This document shows positions 26,640-50,076 of a stretch of 64,000 bases of DNA, one piece after another. The translations under genes were made by a program, and so were the position numbers. The first letter of the stretch is position 1, and each line of letters starts with the position of its first letter. Location of the stretch: contig CP070761.1 in NCBI GenBank assembly GCA_020348985.1, positions 2,924,464-2,988,463 of the forward strand, written 5' to 3'. The stretch is from Candidatus Thorarchaeota archaeon. GTDB taxonomy: Archaea; Asgardarchaeota; Thorarchaeia; Thorarchaeales; Thorarchaeaceae. The notes below the pieces were generated by a model. That model was not told the origin of the DNA. It searched no databases and worked only from the letters and a program-made list of their open reading frames with translations.

Positions 26640-27803
26640 CTATTCGGATGCCTTCAGGTCTTCCAATTCCTTCTCTTTCTTCTCAAGTTTCTTCTTGAGA
26701 CTCTCAAGGCGTTTGTCAAGTTTATCCGCTTGCTCTTGATAGCTTTCCGTGGGCATTGCACCAGAGGAGTGTCTCTGTTCTATGTGTTCTCGGAGCTGTC
26801 CAACGGACTTCAGTTCCTTCTTCAATGCCTTCACATCATCCTTCAATTCGCCTTCTTTCGATTCTTCGTCCGATTGGAACTGCTTTGCTGGTATCATCAC
26901 CCCAAGCTGACCCTGAGTCTTCTCAGCAAAGTCTTGGAACTGGTCTCTAAGCTTCTCAATGTTGTCCTCCACACTCGACACATGTTTACTGACCTTTTCA
27001 ATGTCCTTCTGGAGGTCAAATACTGCATCAACAAGCCTTCGTAGCGTGGACTCGAACTCCTTCGATACTGATGGCATCGGGGTTTCCTCCTTCTTCTTCT
27101 GCTCCTCAGCCACTTTACTCGGTTTTGGCGTGACAACCTGGTCACCAAGCCATCTGAATGCATTTACAGCGAACGTTTTATTCCCGGGATGCTGAAGACC
27201 TCCGCCTCTCCTGAAGATCTCATAGCTGCCTACACACAGGATTCTACCTTTACCATGCTCAGCTACCGCAATTACGGGTTGCTTTGGCGGGTCCGCAGTG
27301 TCAGAAGTGCAGGCAATCACCGTCGCTTTCTCGGTGACTTTCAGAGTACAGCCTGAAGGAATCAGAAGCTCTCGGACATCATCAGTTATTGGATGAGCGG
27401 TTATATCAGAAATAATCGGCATAGTCGGAAGCCCTGCGTTGTTCCTTTCATCCTTAATTGCAGTGTTCTCAAATGATATCCCGAAGCCTTCAGAGATCTT
27501 GCTCATGTTGTTCATCAGGCCGCGATCCCCTCCAGAGAGTGAGAGAAGGAAGAGGCCGCCCCCGTTCTCCACAAACCGCTTCAGCGTGTCAACCTCGGGC
27601 TGACGTAGCTTGGAGCTATTGGGACAACCAAAGACAAGCACCTTGCACTCTGCTATCTTCTTTGCCAGTATCATATATTCAGAATAGGGCATGGCCTCAA
27701 TGTCGTTATCTTTTAGGAGCTGTGCCAACTCAGAGTATGTCGAGTCCAGCCTTCCACGCTCATTCTGGGTTTGGTCAAAGAAGACTCTCATTCCTGAACT
27801 CAT
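26640..27803 (-). CDS. Cytoplasmic GIFT/IFT52-like domain + coiled coil + steadiness-box-like tail
   Basis: VFFDQTQNE...YSEL...LVFGCP...E...LKRFVENGGGLFLL...GG...N....FGI; GRILCVGS..IF; N..FA.NAFRWL; no signal peptide. Confidence 0.7.
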   Translation of the reverse strand: MSSGMRVFFDQTQNERGRLDSTYSELAQLLKDNDIEAMPYSEYMILAKKIAECKVLVFGCPNSSKLRQPEVDTLKRFVENGGGLFLLSLSGGDRGLMNNMSKISEGFGISFENTAIKDERNNAGLPTMPIISDITAHPITDDVRELLIPSGCTLKVTEKATVIACTSDTADPPKQPVIAVAEHGKGRILCVGSYEIFRRGGGLQHPGNKTFAVNAFRWLGDQVVTPKPSKVAEEQKKKEETPMPSVSKEFESTLRRLVDAVFDLQKDIEKVSKHVSSVEDNIEKLRDQFQDFAEKTQGQLGVMIPAKQFQSDEESKEGELKDDVKALKKELKSVGQLREHIEQRHSSGAMPTESYQEQADKLDKRLESLKKKLEKKEKELEDLKASE

Positions 27804-44846: not shown

Positions 44847-44988
44847 GACTCCGATTGATTTACTCTGAGGGCTGCATAGCCCTTCTTCTTTTTGCTGAGA
44901 ATACCTGATAATACTCTGTCTTAAAGCCCGACTTATGGCAAGCTCTACTAGCTAGCTAGAGAGCAAAGTGCAAGTAGGATTTGAGCAC

Positions 44989-45732
44989 ATGATGGAGAGT
45001 CTGCAGTCCGAGCTTTACGCGTCCATCGCCACGCTCGATCAACTGAAGAAACTGTACGACCTCGGTCTTATCGATGTTCGTTCATTCCAGAGGGAGTCAG
45101 AGGCTCTAGTAGCAGACATACGCGGCAGGATTGACGAGCTCAGACGAGGCGGCCTCGACTTTGGAAGGTTCTTGACCAGCGAACGAGTTTCAGAGGCATT
45201 TCCGGATGCAGCAGGATTTCTTGATCTCTATCTTAGAAGCTCAAACCCCTCTCTTCAGGGTCTTACTCGTGAGCAGTACTATGACCACATAGGCTTAGCA
45301 GTACTAGACGTTGCCACAGCAAATGCATCCAAAGGGCTCATGGGTCTCGCAGAGCTGATTGTCGAGGTTGTAAAACGACTTCCAGAACTCAAGACTGTGA
45401 GCTACAATGATGTGATCGAAGCGGTAAACATGGTGTCAAGTCACGGCCTCATTCCGGGAATCCGAACCTTGAAGGGTGGGGTGAAAGTTGTCGAACTAAG
45501 ACCCCTTGAGCTACGAAGAGATCAAGCGGATGTCATCAATCTAGCAGCATCAAAGGGACATACGTCTGTTGAAGAGGTCATGATAGAGCTGAAGTGGTCC
45601 GAGGATCACGCGAGACAGGTGCTTACCAGTCTAGTAGATGCGGGAATGGCTGTGGCCGATGTTAGGTTCTCAACTGGTGGAAGATACTGGTTCCCCGGTC
45701 TCAGATCAAGAGATCGTAAACAGATGCGTTAG
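44989..45732 (+). CDS. ESCRT-II Vps22/Vps36 (EAP30) protein with N-terminal Vps28-N-like domain
   Basis: YYD.IG..V..V...GL..L.EL, VS.ND...AV, P.EL..DQ..V..LA..KG, LKW....ARQVL..L...G.A..D, RYWFPGL. Confidence 0.88.
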   Translation: MMESLQSELYASIATLDQLKKLYDLGLIDVRSFQRESEALVADIRGRIDELRRGGLDFGRFLTSERVSEAFPDAAGFLDLYLRSSNPSLQGLTREQYYDHIGLAVLDVATANASKGLMGLAELIVEVVKRLPELKTVSYNDVIEAVNMVSSHGLIPGIRTLKGGVKVVELRPLELRRDQADVINLAASKGHTSVEEVMIELKWSEDHARQVLTSLVDAGMAVADVRFSTGGRYWFPGLRSRDRKQMR

Positions 45733-45736
45733 CGAA

Positions 45737-46462
45737 CTAGACTAGAATTCGAATAGCTCCCTTCTTCTTGTCAACCCATTCTGCTGCATTGTCTCGAACC
45801 ATCAATGACAAGACTTCATGCAAGTCCGCTTCAGGAAGCGTGGCAAACTCTTCCTGGGTCTCCTGTATGACCAAGGACTTGACATCAAGTCGACGGTTTC
45901 CCGTTTTTAGAGCCCATTGATACATCAGATCTGCCCATTCCTCGAGCGGGCGCCAATAAACCCGAAGCTGTTTCTGTTTCTTATCGAGCCATTCTGCAAC
46001 TTCCTTTTCGATCAGAACTTCTCCGAATAAACGGAATGCATCGATCTTCCCCAGGATGTCGCAGAAGGGGTCTTCATCAATGATCATTGAAAGAGACAGC
46101 ACATGAAGACCTTCGGATTTCATCCACTCCAAAAGGAAATCTGACCACTCCTCAGCCCATAGCCGACGCTCTTTCTCGCTCTTCGGTATGTGATACATCC
46201 ATTCAGATTCCTCTGCCGTGCCCCATTTAGGTAGAAGCACCTCTTGGACCGTAGTCTGGGTACTAGGTTCTGCTACCGACTCTTTGGCTTCGACTTCAAC
46301 GTGGCTTACTTCTGCTGTCTGCAGAATCTCTTCGTGGGCATCAGACTCTACAGTGACAGGTGTATGGGGCGACTCTGCAATTGAGGAGCTTTCACTTTGG
46401 TCTACTACCTTCTCAGCTTCCTTTTCCTTCTTCTTCTCTCTTCTGCGCTCTCTTACACCCAA
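45737..46462 (-). CDS. vps25: ESCRT-II subunit Vps25
   Basis: W..FLL.W, PF, AEWLDK......VYWRPLEEWA..MYQWA, EF..L....L...L..M.....AE; disordered N-terminal extension; TTG start. Confidence 0.88.
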   Translation of the reverse strand: MGVRERRREKKKEKEAEKVVDQSESSSIAESPHTPVTVESDAHEEILQTAEVSHVEVEAKESVAEPSTQTTVQEVLLPKWGTAEESEWMYHIPKSEKERRLWAEEWSDFLLEWMKSEGLHVLSLSMIIDEDPFCDILGKIDAFRLFGEVLIEKEVAEWLDKKQKQLRVYWRPLEEWADLMYQWALKTGNRRLDVKSLVIQETQEEFATLPEADLHEVLSLMVRDNAAEWVDKKKGAIRILV

Positions 46463-46465
46463 CCC

Positions 46466-47695
46466 TCAGGAACCCTCCGCCCAGTCCATATATCTGCCAA
46501 CATCCTCTGGTGACGTCGCTGGTCTAATGTTGTCAATTGCTTTTACGAAGTCAGAACGTGTGACTGGTCTTAGATCAGTTATCATATCTTCCGTGTCAAT
46601 GCGCCCTGTTCGCTGAAGGTCTCTTATTGCCTCCATAGCAGCTTCTCTACAGACTACGCTTATGTCTCTCCCACTGTATCCCTCACTGAGGTCAGCAAGT
46701 TCATCGTAGTCTACATCACTTGCCACATCTATCTCTTCCATATGGATTCGGAAGATTTCGACTCTCGCTGTCTTGTCGGGCAGGGGGACGTGAATCTTCT
46801 TCTCGAATCGGGACCGCAGCGCGAAATCAAGTTCCCAAGGCAAGTTGGTGGCACCGATTAGAGTTATTCTGTCATCTTCAGATGATCCAAGACCCTCAAG
46901 CTCCGTCAGTAATTGGGTCTTGAGTCTTCGCTCACCACCGACATCCTCACCAGACCTGGCCACACCCACAGAGTCTAGCTCATCAATGAAGATGATGGAG
47001 GGCTGGTTCTTCCTGGCCTCGCTGAAAAGCGTGCTCACGAGCTTCTCTGACTCACCAAGCCACTTGCTCACAATGTTCGCTGCAGATACGCTGAAGAAAG
47101 TCGCGTCAACCTCTCCTGCTACTGCTTTGGCAACTAGGGTCTTTCCACAACCTGCTGGTCCGTAGAGGAGAATCCCCTTCCACGGCTGCCTAGCTTTTCC
47201 CTTGAACAGTTCTGGATGCTTGAGCGGAGCCGCAATGGCTTCGTAGACTGCTTGTTTTGCCTCTTCCAAACCTGCTACATCATCCATGCGTACAGTGGGC
47301 CTTTCTGTAAGAATCGTGTCCGTAATAGTCTCATGCAGTCTCAGGCTCTCCTCGTCCGCCTCCGACTCATTGGCGCGACTATCCATTGGCTGTGTGGAGC
47401 TAGGTGTATCGCTTATTGGACTTGGCGGCACTCTCAGACCATCACGAGGTTTTCCGGTCTTCTTCTTAATGCCAGACAGGTATCGGACTCTATCAACGCA
47501 CTCTTGTGCCCTGTCGAAGTAGAATTTTCGCACAGCCGGCAATGAGGCCGACTTCGATAATTTGATCAGAACTTTGCTTGCAGTAAGGTAATGCTGACAA
47601 GCCTCTTTTCTTCGGCCGCGTCGATCTAGGTCGACCGCCTTGTCCAGCAGCTTCTTGAGACCAGCATCTACCCTGTCGTTGCCTGCACCTGCCAT
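46466..47695 (-). CDS. vps4: Vps4-like AAA ATPase with N-terminal MIT domain
   Basis: MIT (KAVDLD..G...EA...Y), DVAGLEEAK, WKGILLYGPAGCGKT, SKWLGESEKLV, IFIDELD, ATNLPWELD. Confidence 0.93.
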   Translation of the reverse strand: MAGAGNDRVDAGLKKLLDKAVDLDRRGRRKEACQHYLTASKVLIKLSKSASLPAVRKFYFDRAQECVDRVRYLSGIKKKTGKPRDGLRVPPSPISDTPSSTQPMDSRANESEADEESLRLHETITDTILTERPTVRMDDVAGLEEAKQAVYEAIAAPLKHPELFKGKARQPWKGILLYGPAGCGKTLVAKAVAGEVDATFFSVSAANIVSKWLGESEKLVSTLFSEARKNQPSIIFIDELDSVGVARSGEDVGGERRLKTQLLTELEGLGSSEDDRITLIGATNLPWELDFALRSRFEKKIHVPLPDKTARVEIFRIHMEEIDVASDVDYDELADLSEGYSGRDISVVCREAAMEAIRDLQRTGRIDTEDMITDLRPVTRSDFVKAIDNIRPATSPEDVGRYMDWAEGS

Positions 47696-47898
47696 TCGAG
47701 TTCGATTGTCCCAAAGAGCTGTTTCGTTATGAATGTCTGTGTTGTAGGATTATGACCACTAGGTGGAGCGCTAGACCGGACAACTGTCTTACTCCGCATA
47801 AATACACAATAACGGATGACTGCGAAAGTGCTGCGAAGGTTTAAACGCACACTTCTTCACATCACTCAAGAACGAGTCTTTCCAAACCGGTGATTCAG

Positions 47899-48510
47899 TT
47901 GGGCATTTTCAAGAGAGCCTTTTCATGGGGCCGTAAGAAACCAGACATTGGAGAAATCAAGAGTCAACTTAGAATACTCTCCAAGCAACTCGAACGCCAG
48001 CGAGGGAAGCTTGAGAAAGAGGTTCGAGACACCAAGTCCCGGGCGGTTCAGGCCCGAAAGGACGGCCATTCTGAAGCATTTCAGACATACGCAACAGAGA
48101 TGGTCCGATTTCGTAGATATGCCTTAGCAGTGGACAAGTCTCGTCTGAACATTTTGAAGATACTCGCCCATGTAACACGAGCTCAGACTACTGCGAAAGC
48201 GTCAATGGCAATGGAAGAAGTGTCCAAGATTCTGAGCATCCTTGGTGATGCTACAGACACAACAAAAGTCATCGAGAACGTAGATGATATTGCACGTAGG
48301 CTAGAGGAGTTTGAGATTGAAAGTGGGATCACTGCCGACGCATTCGACTCAGTGTCGACTGAAGTGTCAGCAGATGATGTAGCCGCTGCAATTAGAGAGA
48401 TTGATGCTGCTGCTGGAATTGCAGAGTCCGACGTACCTGTCCGCCCTACCACTGAGGCAGAAGAACTCGAGGAAGCAATCAAATCACTTGAACGTGAGCT
48501 TGGTGTCTAG
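47899..48510 (+). CDS. ESCRT-III (Snf7 family), Vps2/24/46-like class
   Basis: N-terminal amphipathic GIFKRAFSW, basic helical hairpin L....KQLERQ..KLEKE...K.....A.K.G......YA...VR, acidic C-half, MIM1-like ELEEAIKSLERE; TTG 47899 after GGTGA (alternative GTG 47890). Confidence 0.9.
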   Translation: MGIFKRAFSWGRKKPDIGEIKSQLRILSKQLERQRGKLEKEVRDTKSRAVQARKDGHSEAFQTYATEMVRFRRYALAVDKSRLNILKILAHVTRAQTTAKASMAMEEVSKILSILGDATDTTKVIENVDDIARRLEEFEIESGITADAFDSVSTEVSADDVAAAIREIDAAAGIAESDVPVRPTTEAEELEEAIKSLERELGV

Positions 48511-50076
48511 TTACCAGCGAGATCGATGACCGTTACGGGATAATCTTGAGATTTCCTCTCTTGTTTGATATGAGTCTCGCATTAGTCCACGGTATCGTCG
48601 GATGAAGTCTTCTGGTTCGAGTCGTCCATTCCTCAGAAGATGTACAGTCTCTTTGATTGCACTGTCAAGTGCAGACATGTTCTTTCTGAGGACACTGACC
48701 TCAGGACTTCCAGGTTCAGTGTAAGTCTGATAAGTTCCTGCCGCCACTCGGTCTACCGTTCGCTCTAGTCGATCACGAAAGCCTGGAGTCCAAGGATCTC
48801 TTCGGTCTTGACTCTGTTCGTATCGATAGTCAGGTCTGGCTCCATAAGTGGGCGGCTGCGAGTAATAATGCGGACTACCCTGCTGGAGTGCAGGGCTGTG
48901 CGAAAGCAATGAATACACAAGGCCCTCAATCTTGAGCCTTACTTCGCTGACCGAGATTTCGCTCTGCTCGAGCTTCCTGACACGCTTGAGATCGGATTGG
49001 ACATATCTCTCGAATCTTCTAGCAATCTCTATGAAGTCTGGAAGTACCTTCTTGGTCTGTTCGCTGCATGATATCTTGATACAACCCTGCTTCAGGGTTA
49101 GAACCAGTCTCTTTCTCAGCCTACCATCTTCTTGAAGGCTCTTCAAGTAGATAAGTGGGAAGTCAAACACAATCTCCGTCTTCTTGCGAACACGCCCGGT
49201 CTCAGCAATGAACACAATCCTTGTATTGGTGATATAGAGTGTCCCCTCTGCTCTGTCGTTTTTGAGGAAATCGCTGCCAACAATTCGAATAGACGGCAAT
49301 GCACAGACTGGAAGCTCGCCCACAGATAGCTCCGCGATTTCATAGAATCCTGAGAACTCATTTCGGTAATAGTTCAATCCCTCAAGTTGTCTCTCCAAAT
49401 CCTTGAGACTCAACCAAATCGGCTCAAGTGCCTCCTCCACGTTTCTCCTGTATTGATTGCTCAACTCGGTGATGCGATTTGTGACTCCCTCGATGAATGG
49501 AAACTGTGCACATGTCCATGAATTATAGTCTATGAGGCCTTTAGTTTCGGCAACCATCCTCTTTGCTACTATCTCTGCCTGATTTGCAACTCGGCTCTTG
49601 ACAGCCTCAATCTCGTTTTGACATTCCTCTACTCTATCTTCAAGCCACCTGTAGTGAAGGAAGTTCGCCATTCTGAGTGAAACGAGTAGGCGTTTGGAGC
49701 TTGTCAGCCGATTATTCGCTTCCCTAAGTCTCGTGTGACCGTATTGTATTCCCATTACTGCATGACGCATTTCTTGAGCCAGTTGCCTCCTTCTCTCTTC
49801 GATGAGAACGGTTCTTCTCGAATGACACTTTGGACACATCTCTTCTGTTCTCTTCCCCGCGCTTAGCTTCTCTGATTCACACTCAGGGCACTCTTCAAAT
49901 CGTTCCCCCGGAGTTGGTGTGCCCAGCATGTGATGACAGTCACTACACACGTAGTAAACACTTGATCGTGATTCGAGGCACTCCAGACATAACGTCACAC
50001 CACAATCTTCGCACATGTGAGTTGCGCGATTGCGGTCACACATCTTACAAGCAGGGATAGAAGGCGGCTCAATCAT
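48511..50076 (-). CDS. B-box/Zn-ribbon + coiled coil + GLUE/GRAM-like PH + steadiness box (ESCRT-I-like subunit)
   Basis: Six CxxC pairs; long coiled coil; GTLYITNTRIVF; C-terminal ALDSAI......LRNG.L....F....R.L.R..YQ.R. Confidence 0.72.
   Translation of the reverse strand: MIEPPSIPACKMCDRNRATHMCEDCGVTLCLECLESRSSVYYVCSDCHHMLGTPTPGERFEECPECESEKLSAGKRTEEMCPKCHSRRTVLIEERRRQLAQEMRHAVMGIQYGHTRLREANNRLTSSKRLLVSLRMANFLHYRWLEDRVEECQNEIEAVKSRVANQAEIVAKRMVAETKGLIDYNSWTCAQFPFIEGVTNRITELSNQYRRNVEEALEPIWLSLKDLERQLEGLNYYRNEFSGFYEIAELSVGELPVCALPSIRIVGSDFLKNDRAEGTLYITNTRIVFIAETGRVRKKTEIVFDFPLIYLKSLQEDGRLRKRLVLTLKQGCIKISCSEQTKKVLPDFIEIARRFERYVQSDLKRVRKLEQSEISVSEVRLKIEGLVYSLLSHSPALQQGSPHYYSQPPTYGARPDYRYEQSQDRRDPWTPGFRDRLERTVDRVAAGTYQTYTEPGSPEVSVLRKNMSALDSAIKETVHLLRNGRLEPEDFIRRYRGLMRDSYQTREEISRLSRNGHRSRW

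Follow-up and report, generated by a model that had tools for sequence, protein, structure and literature searches.

The Asgard Znr_CC_PH_SB family in Thorarchaeota: a probable ESCRT-I-like adaptor without a UEV domain

The DNA analyzed here is a stretch of 64,000 nucleotides (hereafter the window) from a Thorarchaeota genome that is 86% complete; it lies inside one contig of 3.16 Mb. The gene of interest occupies positions 48511..50076 of the minus strand; its start codon is ATG and its product has 521 amino acids (aa), exactly as proposed in an earlier reading of the letters alone (the first-pass annotation). [quoted passage not shown] Its neighbor is an ESCRT-III gene of the Snf7 family (47890..48510, plus strand; Pfam Snf7, E 1.5e-11). 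This gene is of the ESCRT-IIIA or Vps2-24-46 class, and its closest relatives in the PDB are CHMP2A and CHMP1B. Further along the cluster are the genes for Vps4 (46466-47695, minus), Vps25 (45737-46462, minus) and Vps22/EAP30 (44968 or 44989 to 45732, plus), all assigned by Pfam; Vps22 has an N-terminal hairpin resembling a steadiness box (SB). The opposite flank carries two TldD/PmbA genes. The same genome has a second Snf7-family gene, located elsewhere and away from the cluster. The ESCRT-IIIA gene and the gene studied are convergent and their ends abut with zero gap (48510/48511), an arrangement that suggests overlapping 3' ends of the transcripts or a selected pairing.

This type of protein has already been published, with the same functional proposal (Hatano et al., 2022; Makarova et al., 2024). 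In "Diversity, Origin and Evolution of the ESCRT Systems", it is named Znr_CC_PH_SB/Znr_PH_CC_SB and corresponds to asCOG cog.011556 (Makarova et al., 2024; PMC11188069 / PMC10936438). According to that paper, eukaryotes lack the family, which is probably of ancestral origin in Asgard archaea and likely to be a component of ESCRT-I; its PH domain is expected to be membrane-associated by analogy with Vps36 (PMC11188069). The protein of the window has the same three Zn modules, coiled coil, PH domain, SB, restriction to Asgard archaea and ESCRT neighborhood as cog.011556, and nothing essential differs. The first two Zn sites are read here as a finger of the B-box type, whereas Makarova et al. 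described three Zn ribbons.

A direct orthologue, ThorAB25_08990, was included as the "SB" protein among the two-hybrid constructs of Hatano et al. (2022, Nat Commun; PMC9192718). The genes of ThorAB25 follow the order 08990 (SB), 09000 (ESCRT3A), 09010 (Vps4), 09020 (Vps25) and 09030 (Vps22) (PMC9192718), which is the order of the window, where the neighbor named ESCRT3A in ThorAB25 is the ESCRT-IIIA gene. In those assays the protein was treated mainly as a carrier of the SB, and the SB protein of Lokiarchaeota interacted with Vps22 (PMC9192718). The printed sequence is collinear with the protein of the window from M21 onward. P0049 (505 aa), which is nearly identical to ThorAB25_08990, showed 59% identity to our protein over 96% of its length. 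The gene model of ThorAB25_08990 is about 20 residues shorter at the N-terminus, its published start being the residue equivalent to M21 (within 50016-50076, minus strand). A start at M21 drops the first CxxC pair (C10 and C13), which is conserved in at least 90% of the family; the longer form, with its ATG and 521 aa, is probably the correct one.

Searched alone against Pfam, the protein gave matches that were all under the curated cut-offs: an ANCHR-like B-box (PF22586) at aa 10-36 (E 0.013), GRAM at aa 271-316 (E 0.013 and 0.044) and Vps23_core at aa 468-506 (E 0.12). Each of them fell where the first-pass annotation had put a domain. Because the matches of the single sequence to Pfam and the PDB were below threshold, family alignments and profiles were built. 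A word-indexed search retrieved more than 160 homologues, nearly all from Thorarchaeota and with 55-60% identity, and an exhaustive HMMER search gave 90 distant representatives, many of them with 20-26% identity and a length of 450-900 aa. The family alignment comprised 43 sequences, referred to below as the members.

The AlphaFold2 (AF2) model made with this alignment had a predicted local distance difference test score (pLDDT) of 87.5. It consists of a Zn module (aa 1-91), three long helices (92-247), a seven-stranded sandwich with a C-terminal helix (256-353), two more helices (363-391), a disordered region (396-453) interrupted by a short helix (433-446), and a C-terminal hairpin (458-520). 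This is the order of domains given by the first-pass annotation, which had read the gene as a B-box, a Zn ribbon, a coiled coil, a PH domain, a linker and an SB; with family profiles, structure prediction and fold searches every domain that it named was recovered. The identity and conservation of the domains described below, as well as the linkage of the gene, were established computationally. All features within the gene lie on the minus strand.

The SB hairpin spans aa 458-520 (48517..48705) and is formed by two helices, at 458-482 and 488-520, with a pLDDT of 94-96. The C-terminus had first been called an SB from a gapless alignment to TSG101, and a recount gave the same 11 identities in 38 positions. 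The resemblance of the single sequence was not significant (Pfam Vps23_core, with the E value given above; yeast Vps23 in the PDB, E 0.63). A profile of 58 hairpins of the family matched yeast Vps23 in the PDB with E 1e-8 (2p22_A), 2e-8 (2f66_A) and 1.5e-7, TSG101 with E 1e-4 (6vme_B) and VPS37B with E 0.074. These alignments were gapless over 55-59 residues and had the register proposed at first. Vps23_core was also the commonest Pfam match of the isolated hairpins (34 of 58) and the sole match of the hairpin of our protein (E 0.0042); the score of the single protein, 17.5 bits, is below the cut-off of 26.8. Mod_r, the Vps37 profile, matched 5 of the 58 hairpins. In an iterated search, the C-terminal hairpin was retained in nearly all distant members regardless of the length of the linker.

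The label "Vps23/Vps37-like" has to be narrowed: the hairpin, in the same register (G-x-I/L ... F ... R/Y-x-L), is what the protein has in common with Vps23/TSG101 and Vps37. It is an orthologue of neither and shares nothing else with them. Unlike Vps23/TSG101, it has no UEV and no PTAP-type region; in their place are Zn fingers, a bundle of helices and the PH domain. Ahead of its hairpin, the AF2 model shows a disordered linker (aa 396-453) with just one helix of 14 residues.

At the N-terminus, a B-box-like binuclear Zn finger (aa 8-49; 49930..50055) is followed by a Zn ribbon (aa 61-91; 49804..49896). The ligands of the finger are C10, C13, C22, C25, C30, C33, C44 and C47, with the spacing C-x2-C-x8-C-x2-C-x4-C-x2-C-x10-C-x2-C; the ribbon has the pattern CxxC-x14-CxxC (C63, C66, C81 and C84), and its four cysteines are invariant. 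In total, 12 cysteines in six CxxC pairs are invariant or at least 90% conserved (41-43 members), and all of them are present in our protein. Among the 43 members, Pfam zf-B_box (PF00643) matched 14, the best just above the cut-off, and the ANCHR-like B-box matched 10. The match of PF22586 to our protein is below the cut-off, and the spacing of its cysteines fits a B-box. The ribbon is modelled with beta strands at 71-80 and 89-91 and has a weak likeness to the ribbons of Rpb9 and TFIIB. To judge from the cysteine pattern, the N-terminus is a B-box-like binuclear finger plus a ribbon, for which a cross-brace topology and a load of three zinc ions would be expected.

The three long helices (aa 92-136, 144-177 and 189-247; 49336..49803) have a pLDDT of 91-98 and were modelled as an antiparallel bundle; they gave weak coiled-coil matches in Pfam and no match to a specific family. 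As in the B-box/coiled-coil part of TRIM proteins and in ANCHR (ZFYVE19), a finger with a cysteine spacing like that of B-box 1 precedes long helices. In contrast to TRIM proteins, there is no RING upstream, as the finger starts at residue 10; all the ligands are cysteines; the finger is separated from the helices by an additional Zn ribbon; and the helices fold back, in the monomer model, into a three-helix bundle. The TRIM-like N-terminus with an inserted Zn ribbon that the first-pass annotation described corresponds to 12 conserved cysteines, in a B-box-like finger plus a Zn ribbon, and to the long helices of the AF2 model.

The PH domain covers aa 254-353 (49018..49317) and consists of seven strands and a C-terminal helix. 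A PH segment had been proposed at about 49020-49332, and AF2 and fold searches placed the domain there. When the full-length model was searched with Foldseek, proteins with helices plus a PH domain (DH-PH, GRK2) dominated, and the PH domain was modelled alone thereafter (AF2, pLDDT 89.9). Its top Foldseek match was the GLUE domain of human EAP45 (2hth_B; E 6.5e-5, TM 0.52/0.59, 16% identity), followed by the GRAM domain of MTMR2 (7e-5) and yeast Vps36 (2cay_A, 1.5e-4). In a structural alignment against representatives (VIA), MTMR2 GRAM scored Z 12.5, Lam6 and EAP45 GLUE each scored 10.9, and many PH and PTB domains had Z of 10-11.6. The domain has a PH fold of the same subgroup as the GLUE domain of Vps36/EAP45 and the GRAM domains of MTMR2 and Lam6; unlike the domain of Vps36/EAP45, it is not split by NZF fingers and is not joined to EAP30 winged helices. 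The helices that follow it (aa 355-391; 48904..49014), seen in the models and the alignment, are conserved together with it across the family.

Two basic loops, which the first reading had singled out, are present in this domain. GRVRKK (aa 294-299; 49180..49197) lies between strands 3 and 4, and GRLRKR (aa 318-323; 49108..49125) lies between strands 5 and 6. Lysine or arginine was found at aa 297, 298 and 299 in 74%, 91% and 63% of the 43 members, and at aa 319, 322 and 323 in 81%, 91% and 91%. In each of 15 members that were sampled, the PH core carried a net positive charge, between +2 and +12.

A search for look-alikes of the PH domain in the Atlas returned prokaryotic bPH_3/GRAM proteins and a fragment of Vps36, all with scores below 0.9 that make them leads only. 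At this level, a module of a coiled coil and a GRAM/GLUE-like PH domain perhaps occurs outside Asgard archaea too. In one Chloroflexota cluster (572 aa), 68% of the members had Pfam GRAM and 51% had Vps36_ESCRT-II; further leads were clusters from Bathyarchaeota and Thermoplasmatota and bacterial proteins with a Zn ribbon and a PH domain.

Between the PH region and the hairpin is a disordered linker rich in Pro, Tyr, Arg and Gln (aa 392-457; 48706..48903), with a pLDDT below 50 at aa 396-432 and 442-453. The length of the linker varies across the family from about 40 to more than 300 aa. The PPTY in which the first-pass annotation saw a PPxY motif does exist (aa 408-411; 48844-48855). It lacks conservation: among the 105 full-length homologues from Thor, 10 had any PPxY, at differing positions, and shuffling of the linker produced one in 8.6% of the trials. 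We therefore reject PPxY as a functional motif and drop it from the interpretation. A short helix in the linker (aa 433-446; 48739-48780), with the pattern F-R-D-x-L-E, is conserved in Thorarchaeota. The spacing in this helix, judged by eye, is unsuitable for a Vps4-binding motif of the MIM1 type.

The family profile matched 193 of 201 sampled Asgard genomes; full-length proteins were found in many families, and a few families had weak matches only. In the 30 loci of the Thor family that were inspected, an ESCRT-III gene was immediately convergent in every case, with gaps of 1-34 nucleotides. Across the phylum, an ESCRT-III gene was at most 1.3 kb away in 17 of 20 loci and within 250 nucleotides in 14, mostly in convergent orientation, and several of the 20 loci additionally encoded Vps4, Vps25 and Vps22. 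A lack of linkage to ESCRT genes in other genomes, which the first-pass annotation had named among the findings that would refute it, is clearly contradicted: ESCRT-III adjoins the gene in all the Thor loci and lies nearby in most of those from the wider phylum.

We searched the genome for possible partners of the SB. No UEV was matched by Pfam in the protein itself, nor in the genome (86% complete) at E <= 1, and for this reason "UEV-less ESCRT-I-like adaptor", in line with the first reading, is a fair label. A profile search of the genome found no Vps28 above the cut-off; the best match, a coiled-coil protein of 412 aa (17 bits, E 0.005), was judged spurious. There was no Vps23_core match in the genome besides our protein. 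The SB profile did recognize the N-terminus of the adjoining Vps22 (44983-45117; E 0.02).

The SB profile also gave a weak match (E 0.013) at 26661-26852 (minus strand), in the C-terminal hairpin of a GIFT-like/coiled-coil protein encoded by an open reading frame of 387 aa in the same window (about 26640-27803). This could be another carrier of an SB-type hairpin or a chance match to a coiled coil. Two small proteins of the genome, of 109 and 110 aa, were picked up with E 7e-5 and 7e-4 (L058:1456-1785, minus, = C1:1058967-1059296; L059:1300-1632, plus, = C1:1968462-1968794), and both carry the turn motif G-x-[IL]-[GS]-Q-x-[ED]-[FY]. Both could be freestanding hairpins that act as partners, or they could be unrelated proteins. 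We did not count them as SBs, because their weak Pfam matches were SHOCT-like rather than Vps23_core.

Taken together, these results support the interpretation given by the first-pass annotation, with two exceptions, the PPxY motif and the exact label "GLUE". The protein is probably an upstream ESCRT-I-like adaptor without a UEV, the Thorarchaeota orthologue of Znr_CC_PH_SB, acting on the membrane side. In the mechanism that we propose, the 12 cysteines would hold three zinc ions, and the Zn module would form, with the three-helix bundle, a platform for protein interaction or oligomerization. The GRAM/GLUE-type PH domain, with its two basic loops and net positive charge, would rest on an acidic membrane surface. 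The flexible linker of variable length would tether the Vps23-type SB hairpin, which would pack on SB-type hairpins of its partners. In Thorarchaeota, the likely partner is the N-terminal hairpin of Vps22, and docking on it would couple the adaptor to ESCRT-II and then, through Vps25, to ESCRT-III and Vps4, which are encoded next door.

Several observations weigh against this reading, in addition to the sub-threshold Pfam matches of the single sequence. Membrane or lipid binding is, for every member of the family, a predicted property. The conserved basic residues are in the loops between strands 3 and 4 and between strands 5 and 6, not in the canonical phosphoinositide motif of strands 1 and 2. 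The AF2 model has no long stalk helix right before the SB, unlike Vps23 and Vps37. In Pfam, bPH_3 was matched by 20 of the 43 members, against 4 for GRAM and 1 for GLUE, and the PH profile had no significant match among the PDB sequences (bacterial PH 3dcx, E 0.03; Vps36, E 0.3).

The pairing of the SB with Vps22 received weak support from co-folding. Co-folding of Vps22 (1-75) with aa 428-521 of our protein scored 0.34, and the best of three controls scored 0.00; the runs shared at least 54% of their contacts, and the pLDDT of the partners was at least 61. In the calibration of this procedure, 58 of 80 solved complexes and 2 of 110 mismatched pairs attained the mark; with scores of 0.60 or lower, just 7 of the 80 solved complexes attained it, as did both of the mismatched pairs that passed. 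Unless a pairing is likely beforehand, a pass at the level of 0.34 is wrong in more cases than it is right, and this one may reflect likeness to the solved headpiece of ESCRT-I. The prior for the pairing is not negligible, given the two-hybrid interaction between SB and Vps22 reported for Lokiarchaeota.

Some bacterial PH domains are oligomerization modules and not lipid binders. The PH domain could be of the prokaryotic bPH_3 type, serving oligomerization or protein binding, and the whole protein could be a soluble scaffold or regulator for ESCRT-III/Vps4. The Pfam counts agree with this proposal: bPH_3 (PF14470) is the commonest match of the PH type, with a best E of 4.8e-7 and some members above the cut-off of 23 bits. 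So do the identity of the best PDB sequence match of the PH profile, which is the bacterial domain 3dcx, the prokaryotic bPH_3/GRAM proteins among the nearest Atlas clusters, and the tight convergent pairing with ESCRT-IIIA in particular. However, GLUE and GRAM domains, which are lipid- or membrane-associated, lead the structural searches, and there was no bacterial PH domain among the 50 best Foldseek matches. Both basic loops are retained in the family, the net charge of the domain is positive, and the SB would still indicate an assembly of the ESCRT-I/II type. We consider the soluble scaffold unlikely.

The protein of the window itself had no match to bPH_3 and none to the GLUE profile of Vps36 (PF11605) in Pfam at E <= 10. 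Since structure favors GLUE and GRAM and sequence favors bPH_3, the domain is placed no finer than the GRAM/GLUE/bPH subgroup, and by sequence it cannot be separated from prokaryotic bPH_3/GRAM domains. The earlier term "GLUE-like" agrees with the PH fold and with the structural match, which is top-ranked but modest, and it holds in the sense of this subgroup only.

It is very improbable that the N-terminal finger and the coiled coil form an E3 module like that of TRIM or RING proteins, which would attach a ubiquitin-like protein to cargo or to subunits of ESCRT. The Zn-module profile matched RING, B-box and PHD chains in the PDB (TRIM2, 3e-5), including the RING domains of RNF4 (2e-6), RING2 (4e-4) and TRIM21 (6e-4), and in the work of Hatano et al. 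(2022) a "RING finger" is named, along with coiled-coil and PH elements, in the legend to Supplementary Figure 8, which shows schematics of proteins related to ESCRT-I (PMC9192718). Nevertheless, profiles rich in cysteine score with bias, the Pfam matches were to B-box families and not to zf-RING, and the four residues between the second and third Cys pairs, together with the all-Cys ligands, fit a B-box better than a RING. Furthermore, the genome search found no UEV/E2-variant domain, and Thorarchaeota were reported to lack ubiquitin (PMC9192718).

Hardly credible is a generic hairpin of the SHOCT, CdvA or GvpG type that resembles an SB by convergence and forms no ESCRT-I-like headpiece: the non-significant single-sequence match to Vps23, the weak matches of isolated hairpins to APG6_N (23 of 58), GvpG (14 of 58), CdvA and SHOCT (3 of 58 each) and the SHOCT-like small proteins caught by the SB profile are outweighed by the gapless profile match to the yeast Vps23 core over 55 residues, with TSG101 and VPS37B next, by Vps23_core as the commonest Pfam match and the sole one for our hairpin, and by the conserved linkage to ESCRT genes.

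A variant of the family was found in which EAP30 winged helices take the place of the SB, giving an architecture like that of Vps36. This protein, P0157 (601 aa), is encoded at L045:9201-11006 (plus strand; = G053:C138), and also at L005:1641-3446. It has a B-box (aa 4-31), helices, a PH domain with a GLUE match in Pfam (aa 246-290; E 1.8e-4) and EAP30 (aa 460-585; E 1.8e-11). Among the 43 members it was the sole one to match PF11605, with 22 bits against a cut-off of 24.1. Its locus also encodes Vps28, a separate Vps22 and an ESCRT-III gene. Fusions of this type are rare (three protein clusters were found), and we found no mention of them in the text of Makarova et al. (2024).

Eukaryotic Vps36 could owe its GLUE domain to the PH domain of this Asgard family, through the joining of a Zn-finger/PH module from a Znr_CC_PH_SB-like protein to a paralogue of Vps22, but we regard this origin as doubtful. 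In its favor, Foldseek ranks a GLUE domain first among the structural matches of the PH domain, and P0157, from one Asgard lineage, shows exactly such a fusion. Against it, the fusion is rare, and the EAP30 part of P0157 resembles Vps22/SNF8 more than Vps36 and shares 37% identity with the Vps22 of its own genome. Because of this resemblance to Vps22/SNF8, and to its own Vps22, the fusion in P0157 suggests a late, parallel event.

To the published descriptions of the family, our analysis adds the conserved basic loops of the PH domain, the B-box-like nature of the N-terminal finger, the near-universal convergent pairing with ESCRT-III and the finding that PPxY is not a feature of the family. 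In Thorarchaeota, ESCRT-II, ESCRT-III and Vps4 are present, but ubiquitin, a UEV and a clear Vps28 are missing. The best candidate for a ubiquitin-independent recruitment of ESCRT to membrane or cargo is therefore this protein, which is relevant to the way in which shuffled modules came together as ESCRT-I and ESCRT-II ahead of the rise of eukaryotes.

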